Below, in pieces: positions 2,845 to 9,155 of a stretch of 64,000 nucleotides of DNA. A program made the position numbers and the translations under genes. The stretch's first letter is position 1; each line of letters opens with the position of its first letter. The notes beneath the pieces are model-generated. The model was not told where the DNA came from, searched no databases, and saw nothing but the letters and a program-made list of their open reading frames with translations. Source of the DNA: a virus (taxonomy: Duplodnaviria > Caudoviricetes); IMG/VR virus record IMGVR_UViG_3300010338_000575; one strand, 5' to 3'.

Positions 2845-3303
2845 ATGGAAAATAAAAATAGATTGTTTGATATAATGAAAAAAATAGACAATTCGTTTAA
2901 ATTAAAAACGATTAATGAATCTACGATTATTAATGATAATAAATTCAAGTTTTTTGAAGATAAAATGGATGTTATCTTTTTAAATCATGAATTTACGTCA
3001 CAAGAATATGATGTTGATATTAATAATAATAACATTTCAGTTGAATGGGATGTTAATTTTTGGATAAACAATAATGGTATTGAAAATATTATAATAAATA
3101 TTAATGAAATTAGTGGTACTTATGATGTGTTACTTATTGATAAAGAAACCGGTGATACTATAAAAAATATAAATAAAAACATTAATGAAATTGAATGGAA
3201 ATTTAATGTTGATTATGATGGATTGTTTAAAAATAAATCGTTATATATTAATACGCTTGTTTTTGATTTTAAAGAAAAAACATGTACTGTTAATATAAAT
3301 TAA
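2845..3303 (+). CDS. Hypothetical late protein, possibly a head protein
   Basis: ORF after GTATTTAT motif; N-terminus RLFDIMKKIDNSFK..INE shared with 11131. Confidence 0.6.
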   Translation: MENKNRLFDIMKKIDNSFKLKTINESTIINDNKFKFFEDKMDVIFLNHEFTSQEYDVDINNNNISVEWDVNFWINNNGIENIIININEISGTYDVLLIDKETGDTIKNINKNINEIEWKFNVDYDGLFKNKSLYINTLVFDFKEKTCTVNIN

Positions 3304-3341
3304 AAAAATAAAACCCCACTTATTTGTGGGGTTTTATTTTT
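3304..3341. terminator. Bidirectional intrinsic terminator
   Basis: AAAATAAAACCCCAC-loop-GTGGGGTTTTATTTT between convergent genes. Confidence 0.8.
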
Positions 3342-3352
3342 GTATATTTTTA

Positions 3353-3678
3353 TTACTGATTTTCATATTCAACCAATCTAATTGTCCAAAAATCGGCAGC
3401 AACATTTGGTGTTGTTATAAACCAATAAGGTAGATAAAAATAACCCTTATCCCCCCAATCAGCACCCCAACTATTCCTAACAATAAGCCATTCATTTTTA
3501 TCATCATAACCGACTGCAAGTACAGCATGACCACCAATTGGTTTTTCTTTTTGATTGGGTATTGGTACAATAGTTTTTAAATTTTTAAGTGATTTAGTTT
3601 TTTTTGGTGTTTCTCTTCTTTAGATACTTCAACAATAATTTCTTTTTTCTTTTTTGAAAAGAAATCAAATAGTCCTAT
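3353..3678 (-). pseudogene. Papain-like C1 cysteine peptidase remnant
   Basis: [13 protein letters not shown]...[20 protein letters not shown]; catalytic Cys half missing; apparent start ATA-GGA-CTA-TTT (xGLFDFF) is out of frame with the peptidase segment. Confidence 0.8.
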
Positions 3679-3708
3679 AATGTTATTTTTTTGTTATAAA
3701 TACTTTAG

Positions 3709-3794
3709 TAGCGGGAATGGGACTCGAACCCACACGAACACAAAGGTTCAACAGATTTTAAGTCTGTCTCGGCTACCAATTACGACATCCCGCC
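3709..3794 (-). tRNA. tRNA-Leu(TAA), long variable arm
   Basis: GGCGGGA acceptor, ACAGA-CTTAAAA-TCTGT anticodon arm, GGTTCGAGTCC. Confidence 0.93.
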
Positions 3795-3799
3795 AAATA

Positions 3800-4240
3800 T
3801 TACACACTTAAAATACATTTTAAATCTTCAGCATTGTATATAATTGTTACAGTTCCTTGTCCAAACATTTGTTGAAAATAGTATCCTCTGAAAAACCAAG
3901 TACTTGTTGGAAAATGCTCTGATTCAATCTGTGGTATAGACACGGGTTCAAAACTATGTGTTACGTAATCGATAATAAATTCAAGTACGTTATTAGGATG
4001 AACTTCATATCCATTATGTCAACATTTTTCACGCCATTCTTCACCATGCATCAATACAAGTTTATACATTAACTTGTCGAAATCATTATGTTTAACCCAT
4101 TCCTCAAAACGAGAAAAACGTTTTTGTTTCAATTCCAGTTTTTTTCTTTCGTTTTCAAAATAGGCATTACTCTCATCAGAATCAACCCATTCATCTAATT
4201 TTCTCTTAAATTTTTCAAAGTCAATGCTCATAATTTTCAA
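3800..4240 (-). pseudogene. Hypothetical protein interrupted by one in-frame TGA (4019-4021)
   Basis: After EEWREKC-TGA the frame stays open for 72 codons (HNGYEVHPNN...CILSV) to TAA at 3800. Confidence 0.7.
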
Positions 4241-4282
4241 TCATATTATTTGTGAAGATGTGGGGACTTAAACCCCTGTGTT

Positions 4283-4579
4283 TCATGTAATTAATATATT
4301 TTCTACAAGTTTTTCTGGTTTTATTTCGTCTACTTGACAAAAATTGGCTTGTGCATAACCAACACTTGTCAATATACCGATAAATAGTAGATTCTGATTT
4401 TTCATGCCTTGTAATGAATAAGAATCAAAAATTCTATCATCAATACGATTTTCATCAACATAACATCTTATAACATATCTACCATCATTTTGTTTTTGAA
4501 TAAATTTTGCGAATATTATATGAATATTATGAATTTCCTTTTTCATTTTGTGATTCTTTTCTAAAACTCCATTTATCAA
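4283..4579 (-). CDS. Hypothetical protein (start probably at MKKEIH)
   Basis: ORF in a co-oriented gene run. Confidence 0.5.
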   Translation of the reverse strand: MINGVLEKNHKMKKEIHNIHIIFAKFIQKQNDGRYVIRCYVDENRIDDRIFDSYSLQGMKNQNLLFIGILTSVGYAQANFCQVDEIKPEKLVENILIT

Positions 4580-5201
4580 ATCCGTGTTGTTCTATTTTAT
4601 ATTTATCTTCAATATCAACCATAATTTTTTTATCCGAAACTAAAATATTACTAATAAACATACTAATTTCTTGAAATGTTTGATAGGTATCAAAAATTTT
4701 ATAAAACTTATATTTATTTAGTGGCGGATTAATTATGAATTTTTCATCAAAAAAACGCCAATTTTCACAATTATAATAGTTTAAATCATAGATAAAAACC
4801 GGTGTATTGTATTCAATAAATATTTGTCGTGCATTTATATTATTAACAATATTAATTATATTTTTTACAGATTTTCTACTATCCCAAATTTCAAAATTAT
4901 TTGAAATTAAATCAATATCGTAAATATAATCAATCGATTTGTCTGATTGAAACCAACTATTTATGGTAATTATTTTTGCACCAACATATAATTTTCCACA
5001 AAATCCAATTACATAAAGTGATGCTAATGTGTCTTTTTTATTTCTTATTTTCGTTAAATCAATAATATGATCATTCTTTTTAAAAAAGATCGGTATTGTA
5101 TTATGAACAATTTCTTTTCTATCATAAATAACCGACTTATCAACACCTGTTGATTTTACAACACCATCATAATAATCCTTATATTTCGAAACTATCAACA
5201 T
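4527..5201 (-). CDS. Hypothetical phage protein
   Basis: 224 aa ORF downstream of a TGTAAC-N16-CGTA motif. Confidence 0.7.
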   Translation of the reverse strand: MLIVSKYKDYYDGVVKSTGVDKSVIYDRKEIVHNTIPIFFKKNDHIIDLTKIRNKKDTLASLYVIGFCGKLYVGAKIITINSWFQSDKSIDYIYDIDLISNNFEIWDSRKSVKNIINIVNNINARQIFIEYNTPVFIYDLNYYNCENWRFFDEKFIINPPLNKYKFYKIFDTYQTFQEISMFISNILVSDKKIMVDIEDKYKIEQHGFDKWSFRKESQNEKGNS

Positions 5202-5267
5202 ATTGTTTTTTTTAGAGAATTATACGAAGATGAATAAAAAATGTTACAAAAATTACATTTTTTTTTG

Positions 5268-5350
5268 CACGCAAGGTAGGATTCGAACCTACGTGTGTTT
5301 ACACAACTGGTTTTGGAGACCAGCACATTCGACCACTCTGTCACTTGCGT
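5268..5350 (-). tRNA. tRNA-Trp(CCA) with an atypical long variable arm
   Basis: ACGCAAG/CTTGCGT acceptor, G73, CTGGT-CTCCAAA-ACCAG, 14-nt variable region TTGTGTAAACACAC, GGTTCGAATCC. Confidence 0.85.
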
Positions 5351-5351
5351 A

Positions 5352-5849
5352 TTATTTATACAATTCAATACCTAAAACCAATACTAATATAATAAAGGCA
5401 ATAATCTCTTCCCACCAAACCTTATTTTTAATATTTTTGAAATACGCAAGTGTTTCAAGAACAATTAATATTGTTATAAATATTATATTAAAACAATATA
5501 ATTTAAAATCAATCGCTATTGATAATTGACTCAATAATACAGCACTATATGCGCCAACCATATGTACTGTTCTTGTTAATTTTTCTTTAAATGCAGCAGC
5601 AGCACCGACAAAACCAATACCCGCACCTGCTAAAAACATTAAAAAATTATCAGTTAATTCAACACCAATTATTATTGCTGGTATTGAAAATCCCCAACAA
5701 AATAGTGTGAATAAAAAATTATATTTTGTTGATAATCTATAATAACTATCAGAAATACTTGGTTGTATTCCATATTTATACCAAATACTTGTGACATATA
5801 TCACAAATATGCTAATCATAAATAAATAAATAATATTTAATGTTTCCAT
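5352..5849 (-). CDS. Multi-pass membrane protein
   Basis: Five to six hydrophobic segments; PSISDSYY motif. Confidence 0.75.
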   Translation of the reverse strand: METLNIIYLFMISIFVIYVTSIWYKYGIQPSISDSYYRLSTKYNFLFTLFCWGFSIPAIIIGVELTDNFLMFLAGAGIGFVGAAAAFKEKLTRTVHMVGAYSAVLLSQLSIAIDFKLYCFNIIFITILIVLETLAYFKNIKNKVWWEEIIAFIILVLVLGIELYK

Positions 5850-5890
5850 ATTGTTTTATTTATTTATAAATACTATCATTATTTATTTTG

Positions 5891-5963
5891 TGGAGTTGAC
5901 GGGATTCGAACCCGTATCAACCTGCTTGCAAAGCAGGTGCAATACCAATTATGCTACAACCCC
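5891..5963 (-). tRNA. tRNA-Ala(TGC)
   Basis: GGGGTTG acceptor with G3:U70; CCTGC-TTTGCAA-GCAGG. Confidence 0.95.
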
Positions 5964-5983
5964 ATTTTTCACAATTTATAATG

Positions 5984-6056
5984 TGTGAGTGGTGGGAATC
6001 GAACCCACAAATTTCTGCTTTTAAGGCAGTTGCCTCTTCCATTCGGCTACACTCAC
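5984..6056 (-). tRNA. tRNA-Leu(TAA), short variable loop
   Basis: GTGAGTG/CACTCAC acceptor, CTGC-CTTAAAA-GCAG, GGTTCGATTCC. Confidence 0.85.
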
Positions 6057-6115
6057 TAATATTATAGGTATTAAATACGATATTTATAAAATATAGTTGA
6101 TTTAACTAATATTAG

Positions 6116-6190
6116 TACCCATTGAGAGATTCGAACTCCCGACTTTCTGTATGTAAAACAGACACTCTAACCAATCTGAGTTAAATGGGT
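6116..6190 (-). tRNA. tRNA-Val(TAC)
   Basis: ACCCATT/AATGGGT acceptor, TCTGT-TTTACAT-ACAGA. Confidence 0.93.
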
Positions 6191-6203
6191 ATTTTATATA
6201 TTT

Positions 6204-6279
6204 TGGTAATGCGTATGGGATTCGAACCCATGTTATAAGATTGAAGGTCTTATGGCTTAACCAACTTGCCCAACGCATT
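6204..6279 (-). tRNA. tRNA-Glu(TTC), C33 variant, encoded CCA
   Basis: AATGCGT/ACGCATT acceptor, TAAGA-CCTTCAA-TCTTA, TAAC variable loop. Confidence 0.8.
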
Positions 6280-6298
6280 ATATAAACGATAAAAATTG

Positions 6299-6372
6299 CG
6301 GTACGTATGGGATTCGAACCCATGAACTCCACCGTGACAGGGTGGCATGATAACCATCTTCACCAACGTACC
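6299..6372 (-). tRNA. tRNA-Asp(GTC)
   Basis: GGTACGT/ACGTACC acceptor, CCACC-CTGTCAC-GGTGG. Confidence 0.95.
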
Positions 6373-6389
6373 ATATTATTATATACAAA

Positions 6390-6402
6390 ATTTCAAAGAA
6401 CA
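6390..6402 (-). promoter_or_regulatory. boxA-like antitermination element
   Basis: TGTTCTTTGAAAT between the terminator and the first tRNA. Confidence 0.5.
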
Positions 6403-6412
6403 TTATAATAAC

Positions 6413-6439
6413 AAAAAAACCCGACTTTATTGTCGGGTT
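6413..6439 (-). terminator. Attenuator terminator of the Asp/Glu/Val/Leu/Ala tRNA cluster
   Basis: AACCCGAC-AATAAA-GTCGGGTT followed by a T run. Confidence 0.9.
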
Positions 6440-6463
6440 ATATTTATGAAAATATATAACATA

Positions 6464-6553
6464 TCACCCGACGAAACATAAATATGCATCATCGACTAAT
6501 AATGACCACTCCAATTTATTAAACATATGTCGAAAATTTAACATAATCATCAT
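6464..6553 (-). CDS. Putative leader peptide MMIMLNFRHMFNKLEWSLLVDDAYLCFVG
   Basis: 29-codon ORF between promoter motifs and terminator; its 3' end GTCGGGTGATAT complements the terminator 5' arm. Confidence 0.75.
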   Translation of the reverse strand: MMIMLNFRHMFNKLEWSLLVDDAYLCFVG

Positions 6554-6681
6554 TTTTGTAATAAATACGTTACAAATATAAATAATGTTACAAAATTTTG
6601 CAAATTTTTTTATAAAAAATTGAAAAATTTTTTCTTTATATCAGATAAAAAAATGATATTCAATAACTTATTAGTTTTTAT

Positions 6682-7074
6682 TTATGAAACAAACAATTCA
6701 TCATTTTCATTATAGGATATAAATTGAAATTTCATACCTAAACTTGATTCATAAAATTCCCCCTGTTCTAACATATCATCATCATCAATTGCATATCTCC
6801 AAATAACATTTAAATTATTAACATTTTCTTTACAATTTTTAATTAAATGGAATATTCTTTTATTTGAATATGTGTTCATAAAAACTAAATTAAAAATTAT
6901 TGTAATATTTTCTTTATTTACATTAAGAAATTTTTGAACTTCTTTATCTATTTTATCATAAAAATTATCACCATATTCAGGTAACGAATAACCATTTAAT
7001 ACAATAACACCCACATCATATTTAAAAATTATTTCGGGAGTATTTAACGTTCCTTCAATAATTTTCTTGTTCAT
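6682..7074 (-). CDS. SiaC family (DUF1987) protein
   Basis: TPEI...G.SLPE...FY...FMNTYS.K...V.W.Y..DDDDMLEQGE pattern. Confidence 0.8.
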   Translation of the reverse strand: MNKKIIEGTLNTPEIIFKYDVGVIVLNGYSLPEYGDNFYDKIDKEVQKFLNVNKENITIIFNLVFMNTYSNKRIFHLIKNCKENVNNLNVIWRYAIDDDDMLEQGEFYESSLGMKFQFISYNENDELFVS

Positions 7075-7215
7075 ATATTAATGATTTATTTATATAAATA
7101 GTTATGTAAATTTTTTATATAAAAACAAATAGACGTAATAATGATTTATTAATATACAACAAACCATAACAAATAATAATACTGTTGTGGTTAGAAAACG
7201 ATATTATCACAATTG

Positions 7216-7287
7216 TTGTTCTGATAAGATTCGAACTTATTCTACAACATCCAAAGTGTTGTGTGCTACCAATTACACCACAGAACA
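7216..7287 (-). tRNA. tRNA-Gln(TTG)
   Basis: TGTTCTG/CAGAACA acceptor, CAACA-CTTTGGA-TGTTG. Confidence 0.92.
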
Positions 7288-7297
7288 ATTTTATTAG

Positions 7298-7371
7298 GGT
7301 GTTTGGTGGGATTCGAACCCACGATTTCTGATTCACAATCAGATGAGTTAACCAACTACTCCACAAACACC
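7298..7371 (-). tRNA. tRNA-His(GTG)
   Basis: G-1/C73, TCTGA-TTGTGAA-TCAGA. Confidence 0.95.
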
Positions 7372-7380
7372 ATACAATTG

Positions 7381-7454
7381 TCGGGATAGCAGGACTCGAA
7401 CCTGCAACCACGTGCTCCCAAAGCACGCATACTAACCAATTGTACTATATCCCG
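7381..7454 (-). tRNA. tRNA-Pro(TGG)
   Basis: CGGGATA/TATCCCG acceptor, CGTGC-TTTGGGA-GCACG. Confidence 0.95.
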
Positions 7455-7504
7455 ATTATTTTTTTCATATACGTAATTGTTTTTTATTTGCTACAAATAA
7501 ACAT

Positions 7505-7540
7505 AAAAAAATCTCATTCGATTTTGAATGAGATTTTTTT
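7505..7540 (-). terminator. Attenuator terminator of the Pro/His/Gln tRNA cluster
   Basis: AAAAAAATCTCATTC-AAAATC-GAATGAGATTTTTTT. Confidence 0.88.
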
Positions 7541-7569
7541 ATATATTATATATAATACAACCCCATTCA

Positions 7570-7629
7570 TCATGATATATCATGATGTTGCGGTTGTGGT
7601 TGTGTCATATTATTGTAATAATTATTCAT
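7570..7629 (-). CDS. Putative leader peptide MNNYYNNMTQPQPQHHDIS
   Basis: 19-codon ORF with CAA CCA CAA CCG CAA CAT CAT; immediately followed by TGAATGGGGTT, complementary to the terminator 5' arm. Confidence 0.85.
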   Translation of the reverse strand: MNNYYNNMTQPQPQHHDIS

Positions 7630-7739
7630 TTATTTTTTTTTACAAAAATACATCATTTTTTATAAATAAATACTTTTTTTTGAAAAAAAATCATAACAAT
7701 AATAAAAAATATTGTATTTATTAATAAAAAAATATAATT

Positions 7740-8339
7740 ATGTTCATAAAAAAAATAATTCAAGAAGAAATTCAAAATTTCGATTTCTTGAGTAATGATA
7801 AATATTATAATGATTCGAATATCATTAAATTATTAAATGATAATCAATTTCAAAAACAATTTATTTGTGATTCATTAATATATTCAAAAAAATATAAAAA
7901 AATTAAAGTTATAGATGATTACATTTACATTGGTGGTGATTATTATGAAGAACCAGATGAGGCATCACATATCACAATTGATTATGAAACAAGTATTGAG
8001 TATAAATATGATGATACAAATAAACCAATAAAATTCAAACTATATTTTCAAAGTGATAATGTTAGTATAACTAAATGGGAACATAAAGAATCTTATAGTT
8101 ACGGCATTTCACCACCAGATTATAGTGCAGGATTGAGTTATGTTGATTGGAACAGTATTGATGTATCGTTATTAAGTGATGATGGTGATGAAATAGAATT
8201 TACCGAATTTAATAAAGCACCTAATAAAATTAAAGAATTGTTTATTAGACAATATGTTGAAGATATTATTAGTAAAGAAATTGAATTAGAAATATATACA
8301 TATAATGACACCAAATTAAATAATATTTCATATTGTTAA
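7740..8339 (+). CDS. Hypothetical late protein
   Basis: ORF after GTATTTAT; N-terminal IKKIIQEEI. Confidence 0.65.
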   Translation: MFIKKIIQEEIQNFDFLSNDKYYNDSNIIKLLNDNQFQKQFICDSLIYSKKYKKIKVIDDYIYIGGDYYEEPDEASHITIDYETSIEYKYDDTNKPIKFKLYFQSDNVSITKWEHKESYSYGISPPDYSAGLSYVDWNSIDVSLLSDDGDEIEFTEFNKAPNKIKELFIRQYVEDIISKEIELEIYTYNDTKLNNISYC

Positions 8340-8343
8340 AAAG

Positions 8344-8745
8344 ATGCTTGAAGAAAGGGTAAAAATATTAAAGCATATTCATGAACAAATTGATAGAAAT
8401 AAATCAAATCTACTTTCACGTTATTCAAAATATTATGATTTAAAAAATATATTTAACATAAACGCATTGGAATTGTCGAATAATTATGACAATATCATAA
8501 AATATAAAACAATAAATGATCTTGATTTAAACAAAAAATCAATATTATTTTATATGCCTAAAGATTGTTATTTTGTGTATAATGATAAAACCGAAATTGA
8601 TTATATTATTTGTTTAAATGGTTGTATTGAAATAATATATCATGATATTCCAATAATTATAGATTCATTCACAAAAAAAATGATAAAAACAAATACATTA
8701 AATTGTAGGTCGTTAGAAAATTCTCATTTGTTATTTATTTTTTAA
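8344..8745 (+). CDS. Hypothetical protein, possibly cupin-like C-terminus
   Basis: ORF coupled to the previous gene; YIICLNGCIEI segment. Confidence 0.55.
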   Translation: MLEERVKILKHIHEQIDRNKSNLLSRYSKYYDLKNIFNINALELSNNYDNIIKYKTINDLDLNKKSILFYMPKDCYFVYNDKTEIDYIICLNGCIEIIYHDIPIIIDSFTKKMIKTNTLNCRSLENSHLLFIF

Positions 8746-8748
8746 ATA

Positions 8749-8952
8749 TCACCATTTTTTTAAACCACATTTAGAATTTAAACTCCTTACTTTTGCAGGT
8801 ATATAACAACCACATTTTTTACAATACTTTCTTTTTGTCATAAATTCACAATTCACACATATATTAAATCTATTAATTGCAAGATTTTCAATATCTTTAT
8901 TGGGAAATGTTAAATTATACCATCCTTGATAAATTTCATGTAATTTACTCAT
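8749..8952 (-). CDS. Small Cys-rich (Zn-binding) protein
   Basis: R..IC..CE...C.KCGC...AK......C...KW. Confidence 0.75.
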   Translation of the reverse strand: MSKLHEIYQGWYNLTFPNKDIENLAINRFNICVNCEFMTKRKYCKKCGCYIPAKVRSLNSKCGLKKW

Positions 8953-8966
8953 ATTTTATAATACGT

Positions 8967-9155
8967 TTAAATAATAATATGAAAATAAATAAGTGCTAAT
9001 ATTAACCCAATAATTATCCCAATTAGAAATGAATTTGAATTAAAACGTTTACTAACACTAAATATATGTAATATGAAGTCTATTGCACATTCAAGGTTTA
9101 TATTCCCATTTTTATATGCTATTAATACAGATTTAAGTTTATTTTCTTCTTTCAT
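8967..9155 (-). CDS. Small membrane protein
   Basis: C-terminal hydrophobic helix. Confidence 0.55.
   Translation of the reverse strand: MKEENKLKSVLIAYKNGNINLECAIDFILHIFSVSKRFNSNSFLIGIIIGLILALIYFHIII

Follow-up and report, generated by a model that had tools for sequence, protein, structure and literature searches.

The leader-peptide attenuators of Proteobacteria, such as trpL, hisL, leuL, thrL and pheL, consist of a promoter, a short open reading frame (ORF) with a cluster of control codons, mutually exclusive hairpins between numbered RNA regions (1:2, 2:3 and 3:4), and a terminator. Leader-peptide attenuation has been reported chiefly from Proteobacteria and Actinobacteria and in some cases from Firmicutes, and a His leader lies upstream of hisS paralogs in bacilli (PMC2965389; for amino-acid biosynthetic leaders see also PMC3082878). 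We have analysed a stretch of 64,000 nucleotides (nt) of viral DNA (Duplodnaviria; Caudoviricetes; IMG/VR record IMGVR_UViG_3300010338_000575; hereafter the window), in which two minus-strand leaders of the same layout, leader A and leader B, precede clusters of tRNA genes. Judged from sequence and modelled RNA folding, both are very probably transcription attenuators of the ribosome-mediated (leader-peptide) kind, each in control of a phage tRNA operon. Most likely, the tRNAs would be made only when ribosomes slow on the codons that these tRNAs read.

The pheST operon, which encodes an aminoacyl-tRNA synthetase, is likewise under attenuation. As proposed for the phage leaders, a stall on cognate codons at pheST and other synthetase attenuators raises a translation component that serves those codons. 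Their output is a charging enzyme and their leaders are monovalent, whereas the output of the phage leaders would be tRNA. Biosynthetic attenuators gate enzymes, while the phage leaders would gate tRNAs, with the loop closing on the sensed molecule itself. The ilvGMEDA and thr leaders are multivalent, as are those described here, and region 2 of the biosynthetic attenuators overlaps the stop codon, as in leader B. In contrast to the biosynthetic attenuators, the phage control blocks spell 3 to 8 amino acids, corresponding to a whole tRNA regulon. The leaders described here are also phage-borne, carry Bacteroidota-type promoter elements and have no sequence homology to biosynthetic attenuators, their Rfam matches lying below the gathering scores. 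T-box riboswitches share the purpose, in that the status of a tRNA decides between terminator and antiterminator for genes of the same amino-acid family. They bind uncharged tRNA directly and need no translation, whereas the conserved sensing element in the phages is an ORF. A T-box covariance model gave no match over 3000-9000 at E values up to 1.

Phage tRNA genes are usually viewed as constitutive supplements to codon usage or as spares against anticodon nucleases, and to our knowledge the control of their expression is essentially unknown. In the full-text literature searched, whose coverage leaves out subscription journals, no account of tRNA genes under leader-peptide attenuation was found; there, the logic is described only for amino-acid biosynthesis and synthetase genes. 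The device would be a textbook mechanism in a new variant, applied to tRNA genes.

Anatomy of two tRNA leaders

The window has a G+C content of about 25%, and ARAGORN reports 10 tRNA genes on its minus strand. Leader A stands before the Pro, His and Gln tRNA genes and has the following features, given in the order of transcription save for the overlapping RNA elements (bp, base pairs).

7643..7650, minus strand: promoter-like -7 element TATTTTTG of the Bacteroidota TAnnTTTG type, 13 nt 5′ of the leader A start codon
7570..7629, minus strand: leader ORF A, 19 codons and a stop codon, MNNYYNNMTQPQPQHHDIS (sequence and ORF list)
7582..7602, minus strand: control codons CAA CCA CAA CCG CAA CAT CAT (QPQPQHH), with the cognate tRNAs Gln(UUG), Pro(UGG) and His(GUG) downstream
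7557..7597, minus strand: predicted hairpin 1:2 (anti-antiterminator) between the control-codon region and the segment around and after the stop codon (minimum free energy (MFE) and centroid structures)
7559..7569, minus strand: region 2, UGAAUGGGGUU, the predicted antiterminator strand, with its partner AAUCUCAUUCA in the terminator 5′ arm, 7525-7535 (folding)
7495..7544, minus strand: intrinsic terminator, a 19-bp hairpin and a U-tract (terminator scan, hairpin 7544-7501; folding)
7215-7454, minus strand: tRNA operon A with Pro(UGG), His(GUG) and Gln(UUG) (ARAGORN)

Leader B stands before the Asp, Glu, Val, Leu, Ala and Trp tRNA genes and is built in the same manner.

6573..6580, minus strand: promoter-like -7 element TATATTTG, 19 nt 5′ of the leader B start, with TTTG boxes and a TGTAAC..CGTATTTA motif nearby
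6464..6553, minus strand: leader ORF B, 29 codons and a stop codon, MMIMLNFRHMFNKLEWSLLVDDAYLCFVG (sequence and ORF list)
6485..6514, minus strand: control block TTG GAG TGG TCA TTA TTA GTC GAT GAT GCA (LEWSLLVDDA) (sequence)
6466..6495, minus strand: predicted hairpin 1:2, UCGAUGA (Val-Asp-Asp codons, 6489-6495) with UCGUCGG (folding)
6466-6472, minus strand: region 2, GUCGGGU, over the last two sense codons and the stop codon, complementary to the terminator 5′ arm ACCCGAC (6438-6432)
6411..6439, minus strand: intrinsic terminator, AACCCGAC, a 6-nt loop, GUCGGGUU and a U-tract (terminator scan, hairpin 6439-6418; folding)
5890-6372, minus strand: tRNA operon B with Asp(GUC), Glu(UUC), Val(UAC), Leu(UAA) and Ala(UGC) (ARAGORN)
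5267-5350, minus strand: tRNA-Trp(CCA) (ARAGORN)

The tRNA-Trp gene is probably the distal member of operon B. Between the Ala and Trp genes the terminator scan predicts no site except a weak one inside an ORF at 5352-5849; the homologous cluster of related phages likewise ends with Trp, and a UGG codon is present in leader B. A first-pass annotation, made from the letters of the window and their ORFs, had described two minus-strand leaders with a shared layout of ORF, antiterminator segment at the stop codon, terminator and tRNA genes, and each of these elements lies where it had been placed. Its promoter motifs correspond to promoter-like elements upstream of both leaders, but these are not sigma-70-like and fit TAnnTTTG instead. 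A scan for sigma-70 promoters performed no better than shuffled sequence in this A+T-rich DNA, and the TAnnTTTG motif was preferred. As the elements lie 13 and 19 nt before the start codons, the 5′ untranslated regions would be very short.

The seven successive control codons of leader A are exactly those of the three tRNAs that come after it. QPQPQHH is the sole run of at least six P/H/Q codons in the six frames of the window, a run of seven was found in 0 of 200 first-order Markov simulations, and P, H and Q together account for 7% of the phage's long ORFs. In the control block of leader B, 9 of the 10 amino acids have a tRNA downstream. The earlier claim that the codons just upstream of the antiterminator are cognate to the downstream tRNAs is therefore upheld by amino acid, at 7/7 for QPQPQHH and 9/10 for LEWSLLVDDA. 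The RNA elements are equally distinct. Terminator-like sites number 9 in the interval 3000-9000, against 1.3 expected, and the folding z-scores versus shuffles are -7.3 for the leader A region and -3.0 for that of leader B. Region 2 of leader B has the same sequence as the 3′ arm of its terminator, and region 2 of leader A sits 3′ of the stop codon, where it still retains GAAUGGGG.

In the proposed mechanism, transcription would begin at a host-type (Bacteroidota-like) promoter a few nt upstream of the short leader ORF. A ribosome that reads quickly to the stop codon would cover region 2, so that the terminator (3:4) forms and transcription stops before the tRNA genes. With no ribosome, or with a ribosome early in leader A, hairpin 1:2 would hold region 2, and termination would result too. 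A stall on the control codons, which encode Gln, Pro and His in leader A and Leu, Glu, Trp, Val, Asp and Ala in leader B, would occupy region 1 and leave region 2 free to pair with the terminator 5′ arm (2:3). The resulting readthrough would yield tRNAs for precisely the stalled codons. The outcome would be negative feedback on decoding capacity, through a separate loop for each tRNA regulon.

These states were modelled by equilibrium folding of a transcript ended just before the terminator 3′ arm, with a 28-nt ribosome footprint masked for each codon in the A site. For leader A, hairpin 1:2 forms when codons 2-7 occupy the A site, and the probability (P) that the terminator 5′ arm is sequestered upstream is 0.14-0.23. 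With codons 8-17 (M T Q P Q P Q H H D) in the A site, P rises to 0.94-1.00, and over codons 18-20, the last sense codons and the stop codon, it falls to 0.35-0.42. In leader B, P is 0.98-1.00 for codons 15-23 (E W S L L V D D A) and 0.26-0.39 for codons 25-28. For both leaders the MFE and the centroid structure contain hairpin 1:2; in the shortened-transcript model it stands out in A and is weaker in B. In this model, both leaders follow the three-state design of the trp operon, and a stall on the matched codons would flip the switch. In silico, the leaders thus possess an ORF after a promoter-like element, cognate codons, a terminator, a 2:3 antiterminator and a 1:2 hairpin. The best non-tRNA Rfam matches are classical attenuator models and fall on precisely these two leaders, both below threshold: Thr_leader (RF00506) on 7502-7603 with 38.8 bits (gathering score 55, E 1e-4), and Trp_leader (RF00513) on 6411-6504 with 25.6 bits (gathering score 41, E 0.06). 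On these scores neither leader belongs to the respective family, and the matches are an architectural resemblance rather than membership.

Conservation and covariation in related phages

The neighbouring gene at 4527-5201 (phrog_4243) led to the first two related IMG/VR phages, G001, a complete genome of 321,624 bp, and G002. Alignment of the phrog_4243-type gene then gave 80 loci, many of them on contigs of 320-365 kb. Both leader A and leader B, together with a Lys/Tyr leader, are kept in about 50 related loci. The relatives have about 50 tRNA genes and a transfer-messenger RNA (tmRNA) in a conserved order: [Pro His Gln] ... [Asp Glu Val Leu Ala Trp] - phrog_4243 gene - tmRNA, Leu, Leu, Met ... 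[Tyr Lys] ... [Cys Ile Ser Asn Phe Gly Thr Arg]. Five classes of leader precede these groups or, in a distant lineage, a differently composed one.

Class A: leader MKNLxxIQPQPQQHPQxxEWGxYA and stop, then Pro, His, Gln
Class B: leader MKxLLDILVAVLMVDVLLWAAEEDKLCTVG and stop, then Asp, Glu, Val, Leu, Ala, Trp
Class C: leader ...NSVININITSGTTISRNGNGIFCSIFGRNIT..., then Cys, Ile, Ser, Asn, Phe, Gly, Thr, Arg (G001 and G002 only)
Class D: leader MRTFGTYYYGKKSYKK... and stop, then Lys, Tyr
Class E: leader MK(N/T)FNKHNNN(N)FKFW... (MKNFNKHNNNFKFW...), then a terminator and Trp/Phe/Asn/His/Lys tRNAs (distant lineage L095, L111)

A matched codon block was sought up to 360 nt upstream of each cluster and compared with random control segments. 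Such a block precedes 30 of 31 Asp-first clusters (5% of random segments), 18 of 26 Pro/His/Gln clusters (5%) and 17 of 20 Lys/Tyr clusters (13.5%). The enrichment is confined to one reading frame. The fraction of P/H/Q in class A is 0.35 in frame versus 0.12 and 0.08 off-frame, that of D/E/V/L/A/W in class B is 0.66 versus 0.16 and 0.10, and that of K/Y in class D is 0.32 versus 0.12 and 0.19. Leader A has in-frame homologues in 19 relatives; their Q/P/H block varies synonymously, and its gaps are multiples of three. Leader B has homologues in 26 relatives. Synonymous codon variation and gaps in multiples of three within the control blocks argue that the leaders are translated, as does the conservation of the frame. 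The first-pass annotation had proposed looking upstream of tRNA clusters in relatives for a short ORF with a terminator, and for covariation between leader codons and cluster tRNAs. Leaders A and B and their terminators are conserved there, with matched blocks above the random controls, and leader composition tracks the tRNA set in five operon classes. A chance origin was rejected on the rarity of QPQPQHH, the class-specific enrichment of residues and the comparison of matched blocks with random controls.

The promoter element recurs as well. Of the 59 family leaders, 53 have TAnnTTTG in the 75 nt upstream (0.067 expected), and the leader promoters would fit the Bacteroidota -7 motif. The capsid is similar to that of Flavobacterium phages; together with the TAnnTTTG motifs, this points to a probable Bacteroidota host. 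A TGTAAC-N16/17-CGTAT motif lies 5′ of leader B (6565-6592, minus strand), with a second copy (5222-5249, minus strand) 5′ of the gene at 4527-5201. Its CGTATTTA part is kept in class B relatives, and (C)GTATTTA occurs near -33 in classes A and D. The motif may be a phage-specific promoter element that overlaps TAnnTTTG.

Leader composition changes with the tRNA set. The top-enriched leader residues match the leader's own tRNA set at 3/3 in class A, 5/6 in class B, 7/8 in class C and 4/5 in class E; in class D the match is 1/2, with Lys ranked third. A CGC Arg codon has joined the block only in the two phages in which tRNA-Arg(ACG) is inserted in the Pro/His/Gln cluster. In the distant lineage L095/L111 the tRNAs are grouped otherwise, and the leader matches that grouping. 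The same data bear on a reading in which the leaders sense global translation status or amino-acid starvation, acting as a timing or stress switch whose matched codons are merely those preferred by the phage. Stalling reports charged tRNA, so that amino-acid starvation would trigger the switch too, and multivalent leaders span many amino acids. Starvation is indeed the established trigger of trp and his attenuation. Yet each leader is enriched only for its own regulon and depleted for others (P, H and Q stand at 0.01 in B leaders), and leaders change with lineage-specific tRNA groupings. Such partitioning would serve no purpose in a global sensor, which we consider improbable.

The RNA helices covary between their strands. 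The class A antiterminator helix GAAUGGGG / CCCCAUUC is 98% paired (n=19) with one compensatory pair; for slid partners the figure is 15-63%. C-G has replaced a U-A pair of this helix in L071 and L076, and in L071 the terminator 3′ arm is altered too; the leader changes from UGG to CGG together with the terminator arm, from CCCCAUUC to CCCCGUUC. The helix of region 2 with the terminator 5′ arm in class B is 98.4% paired (n=27) with three compensatory pairs, for example GUCGAGA with UCUCGAC in L048. Class A terminators are 99% paired and class B terminators 97%, each with 6 compensatory pairs. Most class B relatives conserve a CCTCCTTTCTT box downstream of the leader B stop codon and ahead of the terminator (L035:9264-9300); leader B of the window is without it. 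The UUUCUU part of the box is able to pair with AAGAAA ahead of the terminator, and the box presumably resembles the 3′ end of 16S rRNA.

In class A relatives region 2 codes for E-W-G. Protein-level conservation of EWG or VG was rejected as the cause of region 2 conservation, since the motif of the window lies outside the ORF and covaries with the terminator arm. As region 2 of the window follows the stop codon and is conserved nonetheless, the constraint on region 2 of leader A acts on RNA and not on the peptide. A reading in which the ORFs are independent small peptides or are untranslated, the hairpins are ordinary terminators or insulators and the tRNAs come from other promoters would account for the conserved N-termini (MKNL..., MK.LLDIL...) and C-terminal motifs (EWGNYA, LC.VG), and the terminators, with their A-tracts, could work bidirectionally. 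It is nevertheless very improbable. The C-terminal motifs are encoded where region 2 lies and change in step with the terminator arm, the window retains the RNA motif outside the ORF, and each of the five leader classes matches its own tRNA set. Furthermore, no convergent gene among the window ORFs ends at the leader terminators, and the promoter motif lies directly 5′ of the ORF; the TAnnTTTG scan and sequence inspection revealed no further one between terminator and tRNAs.

Anatomy, conservation, codon-to-tRNA matching and base-pair covariation can thus be read directly from the genomes. The attenuation logic of the trp and his type, which the first-pass annotation had put forward, gains support from the register of the hairpins, the conservation of frame and codons over about 50 loci, the five leader classes and the compensatory changes.

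Signal and standing of the proposed switch

Since the output of the leaders would be tRNA, a loop of this kind is sensible if tRNA, not amino acid, is limiting. Such limitation could stem from a mismatch in codon usage with the host, from decay of host tRNAs in infection or from anticodon nucleases. The last two sources define a special case of the attenuator reading rather than another device: the same leaders, with loss of host tRNAs as the signal, would form a counter-defence or host-shutoff sensor responding to PrrC, RloC, PARIS AriB, retron-associated PtuAB or phage-induced decay. The output fits this version, as it is helpful only if tRNA rather than amino acid is limiting, and the class D regulon joins Lys and Tyr tRNAs. 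Both tRNA-Lys and tRNA-Tyr are known nuclease targets. Circumstantially, G001 has two genes of the Rnl2-type RNA ligase family, one of them (PF09414, G001:136029-136472) within the tRNA region, and a PolyA_pol/CCA-enzyme domain (PF01743, G001:14425-14811) in an open frame of 1819 amino acids (aa); these RNA-repair genes were seen in the relative and not in the window. The architecture of two tRNAs is atypical, which could also agree with a counter-defence role. The tRNA-Trp(CCA) measures 84 nt, its variable arm being class-II-like with a stem of 4 bp, and the operon B tRNA-Leu(UAA) at 5983-6056 (minus strand) is class-I-like at 74 nt and lacks the long arm that a Leu tRNA should have; the odd lengths are found again in G001 and G002. 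On the other side, the phage has no known defence gene, nuclease target or host, and the leaders of the relatives together cover every amino acid but Met, which general supply control fits better. We regard the counter-defence signal as rather unlikely.

Returning to the attenuator reading itself, several points weigh against it. The phage is uncultured, and leader translation, regulated readthrough and charged-tRNA supply as the signal are what we infer from sequence. The family is kin by descent, and the independent observations are 4-5 leader classes and a few covariation events, not about 60 leaders. L077 retains a His codon though no His tRNA was detected, and L095 has a Pro tRNA and a leader without a Pro codon. 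For leader B, the no-ribosome and early-ribosome states terminate less cleanly (P 0.5-0.75), the antiterminator has only 7 bp, a Ser codon lies within the control block, and the Val codon GUC would need extended wobble by tRNA-Val(UAC). The B leader of G001 continues for 8 codons beyond region 2, and the stop-codon geometry differs there. The window also contains 14 D/E/V/L/A/W blocks as rich as that of leader B (9/10), which makes the block weak alone. Its significance derives from conservation in relatives, not from rarity by itself: a block of at least 9/10 D/E/V/L/A/W codons stands at the same place in 30 of 31 relatives versus 5% of random segments.

A broader proposal can be put forward only tentatively. 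The near-complete set of about 50 tRNAs in the phages of 320-365 kb might be split into four or five regulons, each gated by a leader that performs a 'test translation', so that the decoding ability of the infected cell is gauged for one codon family after another and only missing tRNAs are replaced. In its strongest form the proposal would make these leaders a counter-defence sensor of tRNA destruction by anticodon nucleases or host shutoff, having arisen independently in unrelated phages such as the phiCbK-like Caulobacter phages.

Genomic context and a parallel in phage phiCbK

The window ORFs include a T4-like terminase, a portal, a Gp23-type capsid protein and a tail sheath, which identifies the source as a large myovirus on sequence grounds. 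The ORFs read normally with translation table 11. G001 encodes a tRNA with anticodon CUA (L034:19544-19617), an amber suppressor labelled 'Pyl' by ARAGORN, a hint that TAG is reassigned or suppressed in that phage. Searches of GenBank phages for near or distant DNA similarity to 5200-7700 returned tRNA genes only, and the phage sequence occurs in sludge, digester, wastewater and hot-spring metagenomes. Further features of the locus are the following.

3708-3794, minus strand: second tRNA-Leu(UAA), 87 nt (ARAGORN)
4250-4365, minus strand: weak tmRNA match, 13.5 bits, E 0.02
5352-5849, minus strand: hydrophobic ORF of 165 aa inside operon B, between tRNA-Ala and tRNA-Trp, without a family match
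6682-7074, minus strand: SiaC family protein (PF09345, E 1e-23), 130 aa, between operon A and leader B

The 165-aa ORF stops 1 nt ahead of tRNA-Trp. Contigs from three possible RNA runs and one DNA run were compared with the window, and most matches were tRNA fragments of other organisms. Two contigs of the possible RNA libraries match the 165-aa ORF exactly, at 5334-5541 (including the adjoining end of tRNA-Trp) and 5515-5664. As the terminator scan predicts none between tRNA-Gln and the SiaC-like ORF, readthrough at attenuator A may extend to that ORF; a search for IMG/VR relatives by way of the SiaC-like ORF found none. At 4250-4365, ARAGORN found no tmRNA in its run over the window, and an ORF (4283-4579) overlaps the site. 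The relatives have a full tmRNA there, after the phrog_4243 gene; what the window has could be a degraded remnant of one, or else a tmRNA that has diverged very far.

Among cultured phages, the Flavobacterium phage vB_FspM_immuto was considered as a model for its capsid similarity and rejected, having three tRNAs only and no leader/terminator module. In the Caulobacter phage phiCbK, annotated terminators stand ahead of tRNA blocks, and small ORFs rich in cognate residues stand ahead of the terminators. An ORF of 32 codons (..QFVRQIQVVRNI..) is followed by Phe/Val/Ile/Ile/Val/Gln/Gln tRNAs, and gp083, rich in S, L, P and K, by Pro/Pro/Lys/Lys/Leu/Leu/Leu/Ser/Ser tRNAs. The genome paper of phiCbK mentions neither leaders nor attenuation. 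As phiCbK is an unrelated siphovirus of an alphaproteobacterium with 66% G+C and different leader sequences, the likeness to the window leaders suggests convergent evolution. The tRNA-gating attenuator design seems to be widespread, probably with more than one origin.

As a whole, these leaders suggest that large phages regulate their tRNA supply through direct feedback from the speed of ribosomes on cognate codons. If this is true, it would provide a mechanistic handle on the grouping of tRNA genes in phage genomes and would extend leader-peptide attenuation to phages of, probably, Bacteroidota. The leaders would be natural and compact sensors of decoding capacity with codon specificity, and could serve to report tRNA depletion. 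One could then test directly at what point a phage needs its own tRNAs, for which the cultured phiCbK, which carries the same design, offers a tractable system.

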